DNA from: Patescibacteria group bacterium
GTDB lineage: Bacteria > Patescibacteriota > Minisyncoccia > Phycocordibacterales > UBA9973
Length of the DNA: 64,000 bases
Direction: 5' to 3'
Assembly: GCA_040384805.1 (NCBI GenBank)
Contig: JAZKIP010000001.1
Location: forward strand, 51,981-115,980
Position 1 is the stretch's first letter. Every line of letters starts with the position of its first letter. Below are positions 3,233-26,443 of the stretch, one piece after another. Position numbers and translations under genes: made by a program. The notes under the pieces are model-generated. The model saw only the letters and a list, made by a program, of their open reading frames with translations. It was not told the origin of the DNA and searched no databases.

Positions 3233-3592
3233 TTAATAAGCGAGAAAAGTAAGGAAACCGATTATTATAAGTGTAAGCATTGCACGTATTACAAGTATTA
3301 ACAATATTATGGAAAGTATCAATAGGATGATATTTTTTGCGCTATTCTTATTTTTTGATTTCTTGTATATGGTAATGCCTTTACTGCAAATCATTGTGAT
3401 CCATATTGATACAATAACGCCTAAGAATATCAATATGATAAATCCGAGTTTGCCCGTAAGTATATATTTTCTTAGAAGGAAATATATATAACCATATCCG
3501 TGCAATACAAAAAATACAAAAAATATTTCTATCGCTATCAGCTGGTTTTGTTTCTTTTCAATTAAATTATCTCTACTAATGCTTTCTTCCAT
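3233..3592 (-). CDS. small polytopic membrane protein of unknown function inserted between atpA and atpG
   Basis: 119 aa with 3-4 predicted TM helices. ATG sits 3 nt after the atpA stop and the ORF ends 5 nt before the atpG start, which suggests translational coupling. Very AT-rich codon usage compared with its neighbours. Confidence 0.5.
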   Translation of the reverse strand: MEESISRDNLIEKKQNQLIAIEIFFVFFVLHGYGYIYFLLRKYILTGKLGFIILIFLGVIVSIWITMICSKGITIYKKSKNKNSAKNIILLILSIILLILVIRAMLTLIIIGFLTFLAY

Positions 3593-3595
3593 AAA

Positions 3596-5098
3596 TTATT
3601 TACCAAAACTGATCTTGAAATCTTCAATTGCCTTCTTTAAACTTGCCTCGCTTCCATCTGTCCACATTTTCTTCTCGATAACATCCGTGTAGAAATCTTT
3701 TGCCTGTGCTTCGCTGTAATCAATGAGGCCTTGCTGGAATTCTCCGATACGGTCTACGGGAACATCGTCGAGATATCCTTTCACAAGAGCATAGAGAACG
3801 ACGACCTGATGTTCGGTCTTGACCGGTGAATACTGCGGCTGTTTGAGCATCTCAGTTGCGCGCTTGCCGCGTTCGAGCTGTCTCTTTGTCGATTCATCAA
3901 GATCAGAACCGAACTGGGAGAAAGCTTCGAGTTCGCGGAACTGGGCAAGGTCGAGCTTGAGCGTTCCCGCTACTTTCTTCATAGCTTTGATCTGGGCTGA
4001 TGATCCGACGCGGGAGACTGAGTTTCCGACATTCACAGCCGGGCGGATTCCCTTGTAGAAGAGATCGGTTTCGAGGAATATCTGTCCGTCGGTAATGGAG
4101 ATGACGTTGGTCGGAATATAGGCTGAAATGTCGCCTGCCTGTGTTTCGATGATCGGCAATGCCGTGATGGATCCTCCTCCGTATTCCTTGTTGCGTCGCG
4201 CGGCGCGCTCAAGCAAACGCGAGTGAAGATAGAAAACGTCTCCGGGGTATGCTTCGCGGCCCGGCGGACGGCGAAGAAGCAACGAGATCTCGCGATATGC
4301 CACAGCATGCTTGGAAAGATCATCGTAGACGATCAAGACATCCTTCCCCTGATCCATGAAGTATTCAGCAATTGAAACGCCCGCATATGGCGCGATGTAT
4401 GAAAGCGCTGCAGATTCCGATGCGCTAGCTGATACGATAACTGTATAGTCCATGGCGCCGCCTTCCCGAAGGCGAGTTTCAAGCTTGCGGAGTTTGGAAT
4501 CCTTCTGTCCGATCGAGACATAGACGCAGATCATATTTTCCCCTTTCTGGTTGAGAATAGCGTCGATGGCGATTGCAGTCTTGCCTGTCTGGCGGTCGCC
4601 GATGATGAGCTCGCGCTGTCCGCGGCCGATCGGGATAAGAGCATCGATGGCTTTGATACCGGTTGCAACAGGCTGGTCGACAGAGAGGCGTGTGACGACT
4701 CCCGGAGCGACTTTTTCAATCGGGTTTGTCTTGTTCGTCTTGATATCTCCCTTGCCGTCGATCGGCTGGCCAAGAGCATTGAGAACGCGGCCGATCTGAG
4801 CGTCCCCGACGGGAACTTCGAGGATTCGTCCTGTGGCTTTGACCTCGTCTCCTTCGCGGATCGTTGAAAAATCACCGAGGATAATGACGCCGACAGAATC
4901 TTCTTCGAGGTTAAGAGTCACGCCGATCTCGCCGCTCGGGAATGTGACCATTTCCGATGCCTTGATATCAGAGAGTCCCGAAATCTTGGCGATGCCGTCG
5001 AATACCTCAACGACATGGCCGATCTTCTCGGCTTTGGCATCAACCTGGAATTGTTCGATTTGCTTTCTTAAATTTTCTACGATTGTGTTTTTTGTCAT
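3596..5098 (-). CDS. atpA: F1 ATP synthase alpha subunit
   Basis: 500 aa; Walker A GDRQTGKT; conserved alpha-subunit architecture. Confidence 0.95.
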
Positions 5099-6371: not shown

Positions 6372-7298
6372 TTAATGTGCTTCCGCCACGCGATGACTTT
6401 CCTTCGGATGCTCGTCGTGCTTCTCGTCATGGTCCTGGCTTGCCATCGTATAATAGACAAGGGTCAGAATAGCGAAGATGAATGCCTGGATCACACCGAC
6501 AAAGACTTCCAGAAGCAAAAATGGCGTCGGTACAAGATATGCCATGATTGCCGCCATTGCCGCTAAAAGCACTTCGCCGGCGAACACATTTCCGAAAAGA
6601 CGGAATGAAAGCGATGCGATCTTGGCCATTTCTCCAATAAGCTCCAGAAATCCGACAGCGAACATGATCGGAGCCGTTAAAAGGATTGTCGGATCTTTTC
6701 GGACTTTCGTGAAAATGCCTCCGAGCGCCTTTAGATTAACATATTTATTGATGGTTTTCCAGAGACCGATCGTGAATATTCCAAAGAGATTCGCTCCGAG
6801 AACGGACAGGACCGCAAGAGGCAATGTTCCGTTGATGTCGGCCGTTCCGCTTCGAATAAGGGGTATAAACGCTTTGCCATGTTCGGTTGTCTCAATAAAG
6901 CCGAATCCTCCGATTGGCAATATTCCCATCCAGTTATTAAGAAGCACGAAAAGAAAAACAGAGAACACGACTGGAAACGCCTTGTTGGTGATCCTGCGGT
7001 CGCCTGTGACTTGATCAGCGAGCGATTCCGCTCCTTCGATCACGAATTCGAAGAAATTCTGAATCCCCTTCGGTATTTGCTTGAGCTTGAAGCGCATGAT
7101 AACGGCAAAAATGACGAGAATTGCCACGACGATCCAACTTGTAAAAAGCGCATTAGTAACCGTAAAAGATCCGATATGTCCAATCGGTTCGGCATATAAT
7201 GTCGCTTCATGATGCGCTTCTTCGCTTTCGACATGGGTCGCCTCTGGTGCGCCGGTATCCATTATTTCATTTTCTACATGTTCTTGAACTTCTGCCAT
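6372..7298 (-). CDS. atpB: Fo ATP synthase subunit a with N- and C-terminal extensions
   Basis: 308 aa; polytopic; conserved Arg-containing helix (LSFRLFGNVFAGEVLL). Acidic/His-rich N-terminus (~40 aa) and His-rich C-terminal tail (DHDEKHDEHPKESH). Confidence 0.85.
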   Translation of the reverse strand: MAEVQEHVENEIMDTGAPEATHVESEEAHHEATLYAEPIGHIGSFTVTNALFTSWIVVAILVIFAVIMRFKLKQIPKGIQNFFEFVIEGAESLADQVTGDRRITNKAFPVVFSVFLFVLLNNWMGILPIGGFGFIETTEHGKAFIPLIRSGTADINGTLPLAVLSVLGANLFGIFTIGLWKTINKYVNLKALGGIFTKVRKDPTILLTAPIMFAVGFLELIGEMAKIASLSFRLFGNVFAGEVLLAAMAAIMAYLVPTPFLLLEVFVGVIQAFIFAILTLVYYTMASQDHDEKHDEHPKESHRVAEAH

Positions 7299-7301
7299 AT
7301 A

Positions 7302-7565
7302 TTATTTATTTTCTTGAATCTTTTTTGCTTTCTCTTCTTTTTCTATTTTACGAATATATCCGACAACATTTTTCCGTATTGAAAAAAGCGATATAAGGAA
7401 TGCAATTGCCGTAAGCCCCAGGAATATCCACGGTGCCGTGTCATATTTGCCATCGAGATATTTGCCGATACCAAGGGCCAGGATAACGGGGATGGCGATC
7501 GATCCGGAGACTTTCATGAATATGATGAGTCCGGGTTTCCACCAATTTTTGTTCTTGTCTTTCAT
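7302..7565 (-). CDS. AtpI/AtpZ-like small membrane protein preceding atpB
   Basis: 87 aa, two TM helices, first gene of the atp operon, 3 nt upstream of atpB. Confidence 0.5.
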   Translation of the reverse strand: MKDKNKNWWKPGLIIFMKVSGSIAIPVILALGIGKYLDGKYDTAPWIFLGLTAIAFLISLFSIRKNVVGYIRKIEKEEKAKKIQENK

Positions 7566-7592
7566 AAAAAGAAAACGGCCTTAGCCAGCCGC

Positions 7593-7621
7593 ACTATAGC
7601 AAAAAATTGCGATATTTTCAA
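7593..7621 (-). promoter_or_regulatory. candidate sigma70-type promoter for the atp operon (TTGAAA-17-TATAGT) within a 12-bp inverted repeat
   Basis: Minus strand TTGAAA (7621-7616), 17-nt spacer, TATAGT (7598-7593), about 30 nt upstream of the atpI-like ATG. The IR ctatagcaaaaa / tttttgctatag (7598-7609 / 7630-7641) also gives a mirror-image TTGCGA-17-TATAGT on the + strand facing the tRNAs. Confidence 0.45.
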
Positions 7622-7676
7622 GTTTTTGCTATAGTATTCCTACGTTTTAAGGTTTTTCAGTGCATACATCATTAAC

Positions 7677-7770
7677 GCGTGTGGAGTAGAGTGGTAGAAC
7701 CTGCCTACCGGCAAGGCAGGCGCTCGTCCTGATATAACAGGTACAATACGAATGGTTCGCTCGTTGAAAA
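7677..7770 (+). other. degenerate tRNA-like element (duplicate of the tRNA-Ile 5' half with a ~25-nt hairpin insertion)
   Basis: gcgtgtgGAgtAGagtggtagaac nearly matches the acceptor/D-arm of the downstream tRNA-Ile. Then comes an extra hairpin ctgcctaccggcaaggcag, then gtcctgatataacagg resembling the Ile anticodon arm. The T-arm and 3' acceptor are not recoverable. Confidence 0.3.
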
Positions 7771-7794
7771 TGAAATAAGATTAATTCTTTAAGT

Positions 7795-7866
7795 GCGTGT
7801 GTAGTTCAGTGGTAGAACGCTGTCCTGATAAGACAGAGGCCGAAAGTTCGATTCTTTCCACACGCA
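7795..7866 (+). tRNA. tRNA-Ile (anticodon GAT)
   Basis: Cloverleaf readable by eye: acceptor GCGTGTG/CACACGC, D-arm GTTC-AGTGGTA-GAAC, anticodon stem CTGTC/GACAG with loop CTGATAA, T-arm with TTCGATT, discriminator A, no encoded CCA. Confidence 0.85.
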
Positions 7867-7916
7867 CTTAGGGTGGTAGCTTATTTCATTTTGCAACTCA
7901 CTGCCATGTAGCCTTA

Positions 7917-7953
7917 AAACACAAAAGACCCTTGAGGGTCTTTTGTGTTTTAA
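7917..7953. terminator. bidirectional rho-independent terminator
   Basis: aaaacacaaaagaccc-ttga-gggtcttttgtgtttt is a perfect 16-bp stem flanked by A/T runs on both strands; it lies between the tRNA-Ile and the convergent repeat-protein gene. Confidence 0.8.
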
Positions 7954-7974
7954 AATATATATTTAAAAGATCAC

Positions 7975-8405
7975 TTAATTTAATCGATTAATGTCCGTAA
8001 TGATAGATCCAGATTTCTTAACAGGATTTCCTTCTTCATCAAGTTGATTACCAAAACGATCTACTATTTTGCTGGTATTAACAATCGGCGTGCCGCTTGT
8101 ATCAAGCTCATTGCCATAAGGATCTAATAGCTTTTCTTTCTTAACTAATATTCCGCCTGCGTTGATCTCGTACTCATTGCCCAACTTGTCGAGTATCTTT
8201 TTGTCAGGCGAGCCGACAGGCTTGCCATCGGGCCCATATTCCTGACCGAATTGATTTACAAGCGTATTTTTTTAACTAATATTCCACCTGAACTGGTGTC
8301 ATAGGTATTACCTGCTTTGTCTATTATTTTTTTATCTTGAGCGATAGGCTTGCCATCGGGACCAAGTTTATTTCCATCCGGACCTACTATTTTTTCAAAA
8401 TTCAT
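7975..8405 (-). pseudogene. secreted-looking repeat protein (three ~45-aa G-P/N-D-G-K repeats) interrupted by a frameshift at an A7 tract
   Basis: 5' part (8405->8255) encodes MNFEKIVGPDGNKLGPDGKPIAQDKKIIDKAGNTYDTSSGGILVKKIRL*. Adding one A to the A7 run (+ strand T7 at 8267-8273) restores a continuous frame ...GGILVKKNTLVNQFGQEYGPDGKPVGSPDKKILDKLGNEYEINAGGILVKKEKLLDPYGNELD... running into the 69-aa ORF 7975..8184. Confidence 0.5.
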
Positions 8406-8448
8406 AATTAAAATTATATCATTTTTGATCTCATTGTGTCAATAAAAC

Positions 8449-8477
8449 AAAAATACTCCCTTTAAAGGGAGTATTTT
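8449..8477. terminator. rho-independent terminator after the RRM-protein gene
   Basis: aaaatactccc-tttaaa-gggagtattttt hairpin flanked by T/A runs, about 22 nt downstream of the 8499 stop. Confidence 0.7.
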
Positions 8478-8498
8478 TGGATAGAGTAAGCCGATATA

Positions 8499-8792
8499 TT
8501 ATCGGTTTGGGCGGAAACCACCGCCACCTGACTGTGGACGAGCTTCCATAGGACGAGCTTCGTTCACAGTAAGATTTCGACCTTCGAAATCTTTACCGTC
8601 AAACATTGAGATAGCTGTGTCAGCATCTGCATCGTTTTCCATTTCAACGAAACCGAAGCCCTTTGAGCGGCCAGTCATCTTATCCATGATAATAGTTGCT
8701 GATGCTACAGGACCTGCAGCCTCAAAGTGAGCTTTGAGCTCGTCGTTAGTAGTCTTGTAAGGAAGACCGCCAACATATAACTTTTTTGCCAT
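8499..8792 (-). CDS. RNA-binding protein with a single RRM domain and Gly-rich tail
   Basis: MAKKLYVGGLPYKTT...KGFGFVEM (RNP2/RNP1 motifs), C-terminal GGGGFRPNR. Start trimmed to the MAKK Met; the ORF-track N-extension is probably non-coding. Confidence 0.8.
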   Translation of the reverse strand: MAKKLYVGGLPYKTTNDELKAHFEAAGPVASATIIMDKMTGRSKGFGFVEMENDADADTAISMFDGKDFEGRNLTVNEARPMEARPQSGGGGFRPNR

Positions 8793-8998
8793 ATATGACA
8801 ATGTGCTTCTCGTAAACGTACTTTCATACGAATGCGTGAAGAAAACTAATTTATAAATGTAATCGCGTAGCCGATTTTCATTTACATGCCTCAATGTTTA
8901 CACAGCGAAGTATGAAACAAATACCAAAACGTAAGCAAACTACTGAAGGAAAGTATACCACATATATGTCGACCACACAACCAAATTTTAATTAAAAA

Positions 8999-9024
8999 GT
9001 GCCGCCCCTAGGGAGGGACGGCAC
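8999..9024. terminator. GC-rich hairpin/terminator
   Basis: gtgccgcccctagggagggacggcac followed on the minus strand by TTTTTAATT; lies downstream of the 9035..9271 ORF. Confidence 0.5.
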
Positions 9025-9034
9025 AAAGGGGTAT

Positions 9035-9271
9035 CTATTCTTCAACTCCTATACTATTGATAAGTTTCTGTATTTCTTTATATCGTCTTTTTATTCTGAT
9101 TTCCAATAAGAAATAGATAATATAAAATATAACGCCGATAATGCATATGATAAAACCGATTACCATAAAGCTCCTTTCTTTATTGAAAAAAACCAAAAAT
9201 ATGAAGATAGTACTTGAAGCTAGAGAAATAGATGTTAATATGAACAGAATAGTGCTTATTTTCTTTTCCAT
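9035..9271 (-). CDS. small two-TM membrane protein (hypothetical)
   Basis: 78 aa, strongly hydrophobic, AT-rich; has its own downstream hairpin. Confidence 0.35.
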   Translation of the reverse strand: MEKKISTILFILTSISLASSTIFIFLVFFNKERSFMVIGFIICIIGVIFYIIYFLLEIRIKRRYKEIQKLINSIGVEE

Positions 9272-9399
9272 ATAGCAAGGTATTGTTTAATGAGCGAAAA
9301 AGACTTAACAGTTCTTCTTTGCTCATTAAACAAAACTTCTCATCTCTAAACTAAGATTAACTTGGTTTTATTTTAACATACAGTACATAAAAGGTCAAG

Positions 9400-10470
9400 T
9401 TATTCTGGGTTGATAGTGCATATTTTATTAGCAATGTATTTAGCATCCCGGGAAATTCCCGCCAAATGAGACGAGCTTTTACTGTATTGCCAGCGGATGT
9501 TAAGAACATAGAGCCCTTTTATATTTGTTACTCCTCTTGTATGCAAATCCGGATCAAAATCAGGAATATCTATAATGGAAAAATCCGATTTATATCCTGT
9601 GGCCCATATAACGACGGAAACTTCCCCCACATTTCCTTTCTCCGATAGTATTTTTCCTTCTGGCGTTATGCCGGTTATCCGGCCTACTGAAATGACATTT
9701 TCATTATTCAAAAGCATGCCGACATCCATACCCACAGCTTTGCCTTTCGTATACCACCGGACAAGCTTACCCAAAAGCGATTTCTGGGGAATATGGGCAA
9801 GGCCAAGGCGGTATGCCATCCATTGCGAGAGTTGAGAGCTTGGAACGCTTTTCAATTTTCCTTTGTATGAAAAGAATATCTGCCGCCCTGTTTCAATGAG
9901 CTCTTTGGCGATTTCCGAGCCTGAGTTACCTCCGCCGACAACAAGAACCGTGCCCGGAAGCAGTTCTCTTTCATTTTTGTATTGTTTTGCGTGAAGTTGA
10001 TGGATGTCTTTTGGAAGATTGGATGCATAGAAAGGTATAGATGGAGTGTTGAATGGTCCCGTCGCAAGAACAACGGCAGACGATTCATATATGCCATTGT
10101 TCGTTATTGTTATAAACAGATCACCTTCTTTTTGAATTGATAGCACGAGAGTATCAAAGACAGGCGTAATTCCGAATGTATCTGCAAATGATTTTAAATA
10201 TTCTGCAACTTCGTTTTTATGCGGCTGCCGTTTCTGATCTCCCGGAAAAGGAAAGCCTTCAAGATGGCTGTATTTGGCGAATGAATCGATAATAAGTGAG
10301 TCGTATCGATTTATCCACGAAGCCCCGATTTGTTTTTCCTGATCGAGGATGATATATGTTCCTCCTTTCTCTTTTAGATAACGGGCAACCGAAAGTCCTG
10401 CCTGGCCTGCGCCGATTATGATCGTGCCTGTGACAGCTGTCGGTTCCATATTATTCCTCATCTGCGTCAC
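9400..10470 (-). CDS. FAD/NAD(P)-binding oxidoreductase (flavin monooxygenase / pyridine nucleotide-disulfide oxidoreductase-like)
   Basis: 356 aa; N-terminal dinucleotide fold GxGxxG ([13 protein letters not shown]) and a second [14 protein letters not shown] Rossmann motif. Confidence 0.7.
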
Positions 10471-24952: not shown

Positions 24953-26443
24953 TTAAGAAATCAATTCTTTTAATAATTTAAGGACAGTCTGGGGATTTGC
25001 CGATCCATTGGTGTCCTTCATTATTTTCCCTACGAGTGACATGAGAGCATTTTCTTTGCCGCTTTTGTATGTTGCAACGACGGCAGGATTGGCGTCAATT
25101 ACTTTCTGCACGATTTCTGTGAGCGCTCCCTCGTCATTCTTTTGTAGGAGGTCTTTGTCTGTTGCGATTTTCCGGGGAGATATGTCCTCGTGAACGATCA
25201 TGGCAAGGATATCTTTTGCCGCGCGCGATGATATTTCACCGCCCGTTGCCATCATAATTAATTCGGCAAAGTTCTCCGCGCGTGGCATAGAAATATTCGG
25301 ATTATTCTTTTTAAGGCCCAGATAATCCGATGTAATATAGTTGGACGCGGTTTTGACCTTGTCGTTGTCTTTTAAGATTTCCGCAATATTTTCAAACCAG
25401 GCGCCGAGTTCGCGATCAACGATATATGTTTCCACGTCTTCGTCTTTGATTCCATAATCTGTCTTGTAGCGGTCGCGCTTTACTTGCGGAAGCTCCGGAA
25501 TGCTGCTGCGAAGTTTTTCAATATCAAACGCTTTCGATAGATACAGTTTCGGCAGATCAGGATCAGGGAAATAGCGGTAATCGTTGGCATTTTCTTTTGA
25601 CCGTTGAGAGAATGTGGATTGCTTGGCCTCATCCCAGCCGCGCGTTTCTTGTACGATCTCCGTACCGCGACCTCCATCCAAAAGATCGATCATGCGCTTT
25701 GTTTCGTATTCTGCGGCTCTTTCAACAGAGCGGAATGAATTGATGTTTTTAACTTCGACTTTCGTGCCAAGCGTATCAGGATCGGAAGATATGGAAATAT
25801 TGAGCTCAACTCTCATTTGTCCTTTGTCCATATTTGCTTCGGATACGCCAAGATATCGCAAAAGAAGCTGAAGTTCGCGGCCGAAATCCCCCGCTTCTTT
25901 CGCACTGTGGATGACCGGCTCGGTGACAAGTTCCATAAGAGGGACTCCTGCACGGTTGAAATCGACAAGGGAGTAACCTGCCTGTCCGGCAGGCAGGTTC
26001 CCCTTGTCGTGCTTACTGTTCGCCGTGTCTTCTTCAAGATGAATGCGGGTGATGGCGATGCCATTGAGCATGCCGCCCGAGACAATCGGATATTTATATT
26101 GGGAGATTTGATATGCTTTGGGAATATCAGGATAGAAATAATTCTTGCGGTCGAACTCGGTAAAGTCTGCGATGGTCGCTCCTAGAGCAAGACCTACCGT
26201 GATGACATTCTCGACAGCCTTCTTGTTGATGACAGGAAGGGTGCCGGGATGAGCCATGCAGACGGGGCAGATATTGATGTTAGGCTTCTCTTCGTCAGGA
26301 TTGTTCGCGCAACCGCAGAACATCTTAGATTTGGTATTGAGTTCGGCGTGAATTTCAAGGCCGATGGTTGTATGGTATCGATTCTCCATGTATTGATGAT
26401 TATAAGGCTCAATCGTCGAATTTCCAAATCTGCGAATATGCAT
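24953..26443 (-). CDS. gatB: Asp-tRNA(Asn)/Glu-tRNA(Gln) amidotransferase subunit B
   Basis: 496 aa; ...IGLEIHAELNTKSKMFCGC... and C-terminal GatB/YqeY domain. Confidence 0.9.
   Translation of the reverse strand: MHIRRFGNSTIEPYNHQYMENRYHTTIGLEIHAELNTKSKMFCGCANNPDEEKPNINICPVCMAHPGTLPVINKKAVENVITVGLALGATIADFTEFDRKNYFYPDIPKAYQISQYKYPIVSGGMLNGIAITRIHLEEDTANSKHDKGNLPAGQAGYSLVDFNRAGVPLMELVTEPVIHSAKEAGDFGRELQLLLRYLGVSEANMDKGQMRVELNISISSDPDTLGTKVEVKNINSFRSVERAAEYETKRMIDLLDGGRGTEIVQETRGWDEAKQSTFSQRSKENANDYRYFPDPDLPKLYLSKAFDIEKLRSSIPELPQVKRDRYKTDYGIKDEDVETYIVDRELGAWFENIAEILKDNDKVKTASNYITSDYLGLKKNNPNISMPRAENFAELIMMATGGEISSRAAKDILAMIVHEDISPRKIATDKDLLQKNDEGALTEIVQKVIDANPAVVATYKSGKENALMSLVGKIMKDTNGSANPQTVLKLLKELIS

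Follow-up and report, generated by a model that had tools for sequence, protein, structure and literature searches.

The window, that is, the whole 64,000-nt stretch of DNA analyzed here, carries a tRNA-Ile(GAU) gene in the region between a divergent ATP synthase operon and a gene for an RRM protein, both on the minus strand. By the homologues of its AtpB protein, the organism belongs to Patescibacteria, among MAGs labelled Paceibacteria or Nomurabacteria. The features of the locus are as follows:

3596-5098, minus strand: atpA
6372-7298, minus strand: atpB
7302-7565, minus strand: AtpZ/I-like gene
7607-7635, plus strand: putative sigma-70-like promoter (TTGCGA, 17 nt, TG-n-TATAGT), recognized by its match to the consensus alone
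7677-7699, plus strand: relic of an outer tRNA-Ile 5′ half, part 1 (5′ strand of the acceptor stem and D arm)
7700-7720, plus strand: inserted 21-nt palindrome CCTGCCTACCGGCAAGGCAGG, with a 7-bp stem and a 7-nt loop
7721-7732, plus strand: outer 5′ half relic, part 2 (position 26, 5′ strand of the anticodon stem, and loop to A35)
7733-7750, plus strand: junction segment TATAACAGGTACAATACG, conserved in sequence within the subfamily of the window and lacking a stable hairpin
7751-7794, plus strand: arm X, a leader strand with the family motif GGTTCGCTCG that pairs with arm Y and continues directly into the acceptor stem
7795-7866 (7866/7), plus strand: functional inner tRNA-Ile(GAU) without an encoded CCA (ARAGORN; Rfam tRNA, 76 bits)
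7867-7907, plus strand: arm Y, a trailer strand complementary to X, with the family motif AACTCACTGCC
7914-7953, plus strand: terminator-like hairpin of 18 pairs followed by a T run, at the site taken by an outer 3′ half in other loci
8499-8894, minus strand: RRM gene

The putative promoter would place the start of a transcript about 40 nt 5′ of the relic, and relatives that share the gene order also have its sequence, ATTGCGATATTTTCAAGTTTTTGCTATA, 5′ of tRNA-Ile. Besides the ATP synthase and RRM genes, the neighbors of the element are FMO-like, RF-1 and SLT genes. On the 3′ side of the terminator, the stretch from 7960 to 9400 contains short ORFs only, one of which (69 aa, 7975-8184, minus strand) has no Pfam match, and the interval 8001-10000 has the lowest G+C content of the window (0.386).

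The relic is a near-copy of the neighboring tRNA gene, as an initial annotation of the locus had proposed for its acceptor and D-arm portion: 7677-7700 (GCGTGTGGAGTAGAGTGGTAGAAC) and tRNA-Ile 7795-7818 are identical at 21 of 24 bases. All seven bases of the acceptor strand are conserved, and the differences are located at positions 8, 12 and 13, the last two of which break the D stem. No other match to the relic with three mismatches or fewer was found in the 64 kb, and a second match was obtained in none of 100 shuffled windows. The same annotation had described a hairpin inside the copy and a displaced anticodon arm behind it. The hairpin is the palindrome at 7700-7720 (CCTGCCT-ACCGGCA-AGGCAGG), and once it is removed the relic reads GTGGTAGAA followed directly by CGCT(C)GTCCTGA, which is tRNA sequence through position 35 with one extra C; the displaced arm had therefore been correctly recognized. 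Neither a T arm nor a 3′ acceptor strand follows the copy, again as first described. ARAGORN calls no tRNA within 7677-7770 and Rfam reports no match there even at E<=10; the first reading did not overlook a tRNA here. The segment 7677-7732 is thus a partial tRNA duplicate or pseudogene in the usual sense, similar to a functional neighbor and structurally incomplete. The CGG/CCG that the hairpin could present in its loop is not an anticodon; the hairpin is a member of a palindrome family also found elsewhere. We also rejected the idea that the hairpin (CTGCC...GGCAG) is the anticodon arm of the copy with a compensatory T-A to C-G change, the alignment showing a clean insertion of 21-22 nt. A separate assembly for this organism (Logan contig, run SRR26324625) is identical to the window over 7504-7823 and stops inside the repeat.

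To place the relic among related loci, we used AtpB similarity to collect 80 loci from species-representative genomes. The tRNA-Ile(GAU) gene adjoins the atp operon in most of these, in either orientation, and in six (L002, L008, L016, L053, L056 and L077) the tRNA gene is embedded in a larger unit composed, in this order, of a tRNA-Ile 5′ half, a short junction, arm X, a complete tRNA-Ile, arm Y and a tRNA-Ile 3′ half. In this arrangement, to which we refer as a nest, a second tRNA-Ile copy is interrupted in its anticodon loop, after position 35, by a complete tRNA-Ile lying between complementary arms. The outer 5′ half ends at CCTGA (position 35) in all members of the family and the outer 3′ half begins with (T)AAGACAG, while the arms measure about 45 nt each in the nests of the genome loci. 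The nest occupies a locus shared by related Paceibacteria, a group of ultra-small bacteria, with the RRM gene, tRNA-Ile and the atp operon. A scan of metagenomes for two tRNA-Ile 5′ halves located 50-80 nt apart yielded 33 further loci with the same plan, several on contigs of 50-635 kb and several in the same gene neighborhood. Hereafter, the six genome loci and the window are referred to as the unbiased nest loci (n = 7). Nests come in single, double and triple layers, which in L094 and its relatives take the form of repeated (5′ half-X) and (Y-3′ half) units. A literature search on tRNA genes of Patescibacteria that are nested, split, permuted or disrupted returned nothing beyond a paper on group I introns, and the nested family appears to be undescribed.

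The window element is a decayed member of this conserved nested architecture. The segment 7677-7794 aligns over its full length with the outer 5′ half, junction and X of 12 loci at 70-86% identity (80-86% for L082, L085, L086, L087, L089 and L053), the sole gap relative to intact outer halves being the palindrome of 21-22 nt, and 7867-7907 aligns with arm Y of other nests. As in these, the outer 5′ half of the window ends at CCTGA (7732), here interrupted by one palindrome, and homologous arms X and Y pair and extend the inner acceptor stem. The outer 3′ half (AAGACAG...) is missing after Y, where at most AAAAGAC is left and the terminator-like hairpin stands instead, and the window is therefore a partial nest. 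Its outer copy is dead, having a broken D stem, the 21-nt palindrome, a 1-nt insertion and no 3′ half; what is intact is the X:Y helix, which runs on into the acceptor stem of the functional tRNA at 7795-7866. Among the closest relatives with this gene order and promoter, L086 and L091 have complete nests, and L114, L117 and L118 have an identical tRNA and no nest parts. Related Paceibacteria carry a homologous element at the orthologous site, which modifies several of the first proposals. A pseudogene or duplication scar is right insofar as the copy is degenerate and partial, and wrong insofar as a one-off local event was meant, given that the same architecture recurs at orthologous loci. What was considered a possible tRNA with its own intron or insertion is instead the 5′ flank of a nested architecture conserved at many Paceibacteria loci. 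A structured leader describes the part formed by arm X in its pairing with Y, the remainder being an outer-half relic. Of the extent first given, 7677-7770, the start is retained and the end is moved to 7794, the end of arm X, with the pairing partner at 7867-7907.

The inserted palindrome belongs to a family, CCTGCCTRYCGGYAGGCAGG, that recurs at unrelated sites. Its copies and near-twins are:

7700-7720, plus strand, window: copy in the relic
25977-25997, minus strand, window: copy inside the GatB ORF
3460-3479, L069: near-twin
1086-1105, L092: near-twin
about 2402-2426, L106: near-twin
6746-6765, L117: near-twin in the atpA-atpG spacer

Three of these sites lie in D arms, each belonging to a different outer tRNA half (window, L069 and the tRNA-Val half of L092). 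The copy in the GatB ORF encodes ..NLPAGQAG.. in a loop that is variable among solved GatB structures and is only 2 to 8 residues longer than in the references, an ambiguous case of a possible in-frame insertion. The family possibly constitutes a mobile palindromic element of small size. Known small palindromic insertion elements are REP sequences and Rickettsia palindromic elements; the 7700-7720 palindrome resembles them in being short, GC-rich and present at unrelated sites, including an ORF and RNA-gene relics, and differs from them in measuring only about 20 nt.

Pairing between the arms is the feature most consistently retained by the nests. In the window, X and Y form an interrupted helix of 33 pairs, 4 of them G-U, with an energy of −30.0 kcal/mol. 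An alignment-free test of 22 loci indicated that the Y arm of the same locus is the best partner of X in 21 of them, including the window (rank 1 of 22), with a mean energy of −32.4 kcal/mol for own-locus pairs compared with −14.7 kcal/mol for cross-locus pairs. The pairing is strong in 7/7 unbiased nest loci and runs unbroken into the acceptor stem, U(-1) facing A73. Minimum free energy folds consist of an outer acceptor stem, the X:Y helix and the inner cloverleaf at its tip (z-scores of −7.9 for L008, −4.7 for L016 and −7.7 for the window), and RNAalifold applied to 12 complete nests predicted 59 pairs, 31 of which display compensatory changes, including all seven pairs of helix A, the helix nearest to the outer anticodon stem. 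X:Y has the form of a leader-trailer stalk, a long helix continuous with the terminal helix of a mature RNA. Such processing stalks are exemplified by the RNase III stems that flank bacterial 16S and 23S rRNA. The nest resembles them in that a helix between 5′ leader and 3′ trailer prolongs the terminal helix of the mature RNA, whereas its stalk, for which cleavage is presumed, flanks a tRNA and occurs only together with outer halves. No leader-trailer pairing was found in non-nested tRNA-Ile loci, which are devoid of outer halves, or at the tRNA-Leu of the window, and we discarded on that account the possibility that the arms are a general trait of tRNA precursors in this clade.

Two properties of the arms qualify this picture. 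Sense and antisense X:Y duplexes have similar energies (−32.4 and −31.4 kcal/mol, p = 0.45), and the arms could therefore equally be an inverted repeat acting at the DNA level. Moreover, an internal loop of the arms (GGUUCGCUCG on one side, CUCGCUGCC on the other) is conserved in its primary sequence, which simple stalk pairing does not require and which hints at a specific partner. The junction hairpin, which we considered as a conserved covarying element, is present in some lineages only, the subfamily of the window having no stable hairpin. A derivation of X from a decayed tRNA 3′ half and of Y from a decayed 5′ half is suggestive and too weak to claim; in L086, the outer half, junction and X together give a weak tRNA match of 22.8 bits, and Y resembles GGTA...AAC..GCTG.CC.

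The outer tRNA has fared differently. It is intact in one of the seven unbiased loci (L008); the other unbiased nests exhibit altered anticodon regions, acceptor mismatches or missing halves, and insertions of GC-rich hairpins into the D, variable or T loops. Since the outer tRNA is usually broken and X:Y is always kept, we read the window as a dead outer half next to a stalk that still pairs. Among outer 3′ halves only, different GC-rich hairpins of 25-60 nt are inserted at almost identical positions, at the boundary of T stem and T loop (about 53/54 to 57/58) in L056, L077, L091, L094/L097/L103/L107, L100 and L106, and in the variable loop in L081; the insert at the T boundary of L094 is tandemly duplicated. 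Outer 5′ halves of distant lineages share two D-arm variants that are not found in tRNA, GTAGAGTGG and GTTGTTGG; they are carried by the window (7686-7694), by the L088/L094 cluster and by L001, L007, L010, L016, L017, L022 and L049, and the first 7-12 nt of these 5′ halves still match the acceptor sequence of the resident tRNA.

Nests are not restricted to tRNA-Ile. L106 and L092 contain tRNA-Val(GAC) nests that are also broken after UGA at position 35. They are located at about 4230-4420 in L106 and at about 1070-1270 in L092, with another around 474-547 on the minus strand of L090, in which the break is in the D loop. In the tRNA-Val nests of L106 and L092, the outer 5′ half is broken after TTGA or ATGA and followed by short complementary arms, e.g. 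TCCCGCACCTTTTA and TAAAAGGTGCGGGA, around a complete inner tRNA-Val of a different allele, and then by the outer 3′ part. In L095 (5692-6016) and L104, a tRNA-Ala(TGC) directly follows the nested tRNA-Ile, a combination characteristic of rRNA operon spacers. In most relatives (L001-L080) the tRNA-Ile module and the atp operon point in the same direction, and the module is inverted, hence divergent as in the window, in the subgroup with the ATTGCGATATTTTCAAGTTTTTGCTATA promoter (L001, L011, L015, L017, L021 and L027, and further L032, L042, L068, L114 and L117). A second conserved element follows tRNA-Ile in L018 (853-965), L080 (3633-3760) and L014 (733-900), and is also found 3′ of tRNA-Ile in L032, L086 and L117. 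From an acceptor-like GCGKGTGAG at its start it extends through a hairpin with the loop AAACTGCTTT to a terminal repeat of the last 18 nt of the tRNA (GATTCC...CACACGCA). It has no Rfam match and a fold z-score of −4.7, and looks like another tRNA-derived structured RNA.

We consider it probable that the element under study represents the 5′ flank, now decayed, of a nested tRNA-Ile gene that works and has evolved in the following manner. The whole unit would be transcribed as a single precursor from the putative promoter at 7607-7635. X:Y would zip leader and trailer together and hold the inner cloverleaf in register, at the same time keeping the upstream acceptor look-alike from mispairing and thereby serving as a folding insulator. 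A double-strand-specific endonuclease and RNase P would then take off the stalk, with trimming of the 3′ end and addition of CCA, and the outer half would have no function in this genome. As for its history, the arrangement is presumably old and mostly vertically inherited, with gene conversion keeping the outer halves similar to the inner tRNA in some lineages, and deletion between the direct repeats causing its loss or erosion in others. Divergence of X and Y correlates with that of AtpB (Spearman 0.56, p = 7e-6), which argues for mainly vertical descent under constraint with repeated loss. The persistence of nests over deep divergence, despite direct repeats that are prone to deletion, suggests selection for more than a relic.

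The alternative that survives best, and which we still regard as unlikely, is that X-tRNA-Y is a mobile, self-replacing cassette. This non-autonomous unit would insert at 35/36 of tRNA genes of the same kind and spread by means of a recombinase or nuclease acting in trans, or by homologous recombination on the tRNA halves after DNA uptake; as the cassette carries a replacement tRNA, its insertion would be harmless, and the element in the window would be what an old invasion left behind. This scenario accounts for the fact that outer and inner tRNAs are different, each self-consistent alleles in L106, L105, L092 and L002, and also in L090 and L101. In L106, for instance, the outer acceptor strands are GGGCGGC/GCCGCCC and the inner ones GCGCACA/TGTGCGC, and the same two tRNA-Val alleles exchange inner and outer roles between L106 and L092. 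Such differences are not explained by purely vertical decay. Mobility would also be in line with the layering, the outermost of the three shells of L085 being the most decayed, with the patchy presence of nests among close relatives, with the constancy of the break, which follows UGA at position 35 in Ile as well as in Val, and with the arms themselves, which like the termini of a MITE are imperfect inverted repeats without strand bias. On the other hand, there is one syntenic locus per genome, the nest lying at the same site in all genomes examined, and the dispersed copies and fixed target-site duplication of a MITE are not observed, the window having one locus and the junction overlaps varying from 0 to 4 nt. 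No recombinase, endonuclease, transposase or integrase gene was found within about 5 kb of the window element, and two pattern scans of viral contigs revealed no nest copies, a result that led us to reject a phage or plasmid as carrier. The divergence of the arms follows that of the host, and the two outer layers of L094 copy each other and not the inner tRNA, which looks like local recombination rather than fresh invasion.

It is quite unlikely that the relic is instead a regulatory leader in which the acceptor/D-arm look-alike, as a tRNA mimic or alternative pairing partner, would tune RNase P or sense a tRNA-binding factor. Short copies of the tRNA's first 12 nt do persist in the leaders of about 10 further loci and match the acceptor of their own lineage (GCGTGTG versus GAGCGTG), and the D-arm variants described above are common to distant lineages. 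Gene conversion from the adjacent tRNA explains this tracking, however, and L114 and L117, among the closest relatives, combine an identical tRNA and promoter with no mimic, while the window copy is broken by a palindrome that has also landed in unrelated places.

We give still less credence to the notion that the nest is a functional intron, from which an insert of roughly 180 nt (junction, X, inner tRNA and Y) would be excised and the outer halves ligated, so that two tRNAs would be obtained per transcript and the window copy would be a dead version. The predicted precursor fold does join the outer halves into a cloverleaf, and these halves are 100% identical to the inner tRNA in L008, L086, L095, L098 and L102. 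The break at 35/36 is also the site favored by group I introns that sit in Patescibacteria genes for tRNA-Asn and tRNA-Asp (Nakagawa et al., mSystems 2026, PMC13011429), in a study that makes no mention of tRNA-Ile(GAU), duplicates or nesting. The two systems share the phylum, the position of the break in the anticodon loop and the fact of being missed by standard tRNA finders. They differ in that the nest has no catalytic core: comparison with Rfam yielded neither a group I core nor another family in the window, in 16 loci at the gathering threshold, or, at E<=10, in L086 and L018, and a group I intron was rejected. The upstream exon of a group I intron ends in a U paired with a G in P1, whereas all outer 5′ halves end at A35, followed by U or G. 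The nest insert also differs in consisting mostly of a long two-strand helix and a complete tRNA, and in that many copies cannot regenerate the anticodon. Indeed, many outer halves read CCTGAG on the 5′ side, with G36, and ...TTTAAAAGACAG on the 3′ side, and joining them cannot therefore restore GAU. These points, the intact outer tRNA in only one of the seven unbiased loci and the lack of any 3′ half in the window all speak against splicing.

The one case that speaks for excision is L055 (164-286), where the 5′ half alone is duplicated with a period of 51 nt and ARAGORN calls no tRNA. Its 3′ acceptor strand, CAGACGC, forms 7/7 pairs with the upstream 5′ half (GCGTCTG) and 4/7 with the adjacent one (GCGAGCG), and the locus is either a dead chimera or a gene that needs a 51-nt excision; a deletion chimera can also explain the case.

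Other routes to excision received no better support. Archaea and red algae possess disrupted tRNA genes with bulge-helix-bulge (BHB) introns as well as split and circularly permuted tRNAs (PMC4033280, PMC3978253). Like these, the nest has halves that are separated in the DNA and would be joined in the precursor by long complementary flanks next to the anticodon loop. Unlike them, it is bacterial, its halves are redundant in view of the complete tRNA between them, and its outer copy is usually broken. Inspection of the nest junctions did not reveal a BHB motif (two 3-nt bulges separated by a 4-bp helix); they are three-way junctions of anticodon stem, junction segment and helix A, and nothing ahead of the 3′ half is complementary to the 4-nt CUGA that follows the anticodon stem. 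A hammerhead-like three-way junction, suggested by CUGAU and the topology, was rejected because the core purines G8 and G12 are missing and Rfam gives no match, and small self-cleaving ribozymes had no Rfam matches at E<=10.

Least probable of all is an ordinary scar, left by a one-off tandem partial duplication or as the att remnant of an integrative element that uses tRNA genes: the copy is clearly degenerate and partial direct tRNA repeats beside an intact gene are typical of integrase footprints, but dozens of independent assemblies contain homologous elements that share its boundaries and arms, and the orthologous loci contradict it. The nest shares with att duplications the partial direct repeat beside an intact gene. 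In contrast to them, the repeat in the window is the 5′ half and not the 3′ part of the tRNA, and elsewhere both halves surround the gene, the 3′ half only about 100 nt away; the arms are complementary, several layers are possible, and there is no ORF, integrase, recombinase or cargo.

Considered by itself, the window has a modest consequence, namely a dead relic and a structured leader-trailer stalk around a normal tRNA. Nests also matter for genome annotation: tRNA finders overlook their outer halves, which interrupt assemblies and may be misread as pseudogenes. We also entertain, tentatively and as the less probable outcome, that nests represent an unrecognized class of interruption of bacterial tRNA genes, intron-like and layered, selected or self-spreading and maybe excised as RNA, of which the window would be a fossil; if this is true, excision of the unit at the RNA level might yield another tRNA or a tRNA-like RNA in two pieces. 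Bacterial tRNA genes are otherwise held to be structurally uniform, self-splicing introns of groups I and II being the only known exceptions (PMC4033280). A tRNA inside the anticodon loop of another, with pairing arms, up to three layers and two isoacceptors, would add a gene architecture to the Candidate Phyla Radiation. Nests bear on the origin of tRNA introns and split tRNAs, on the tolerance of insertions by an essential single-copy tRNA gene, and on the concerted evolution of tRNA genes with nearby copies.
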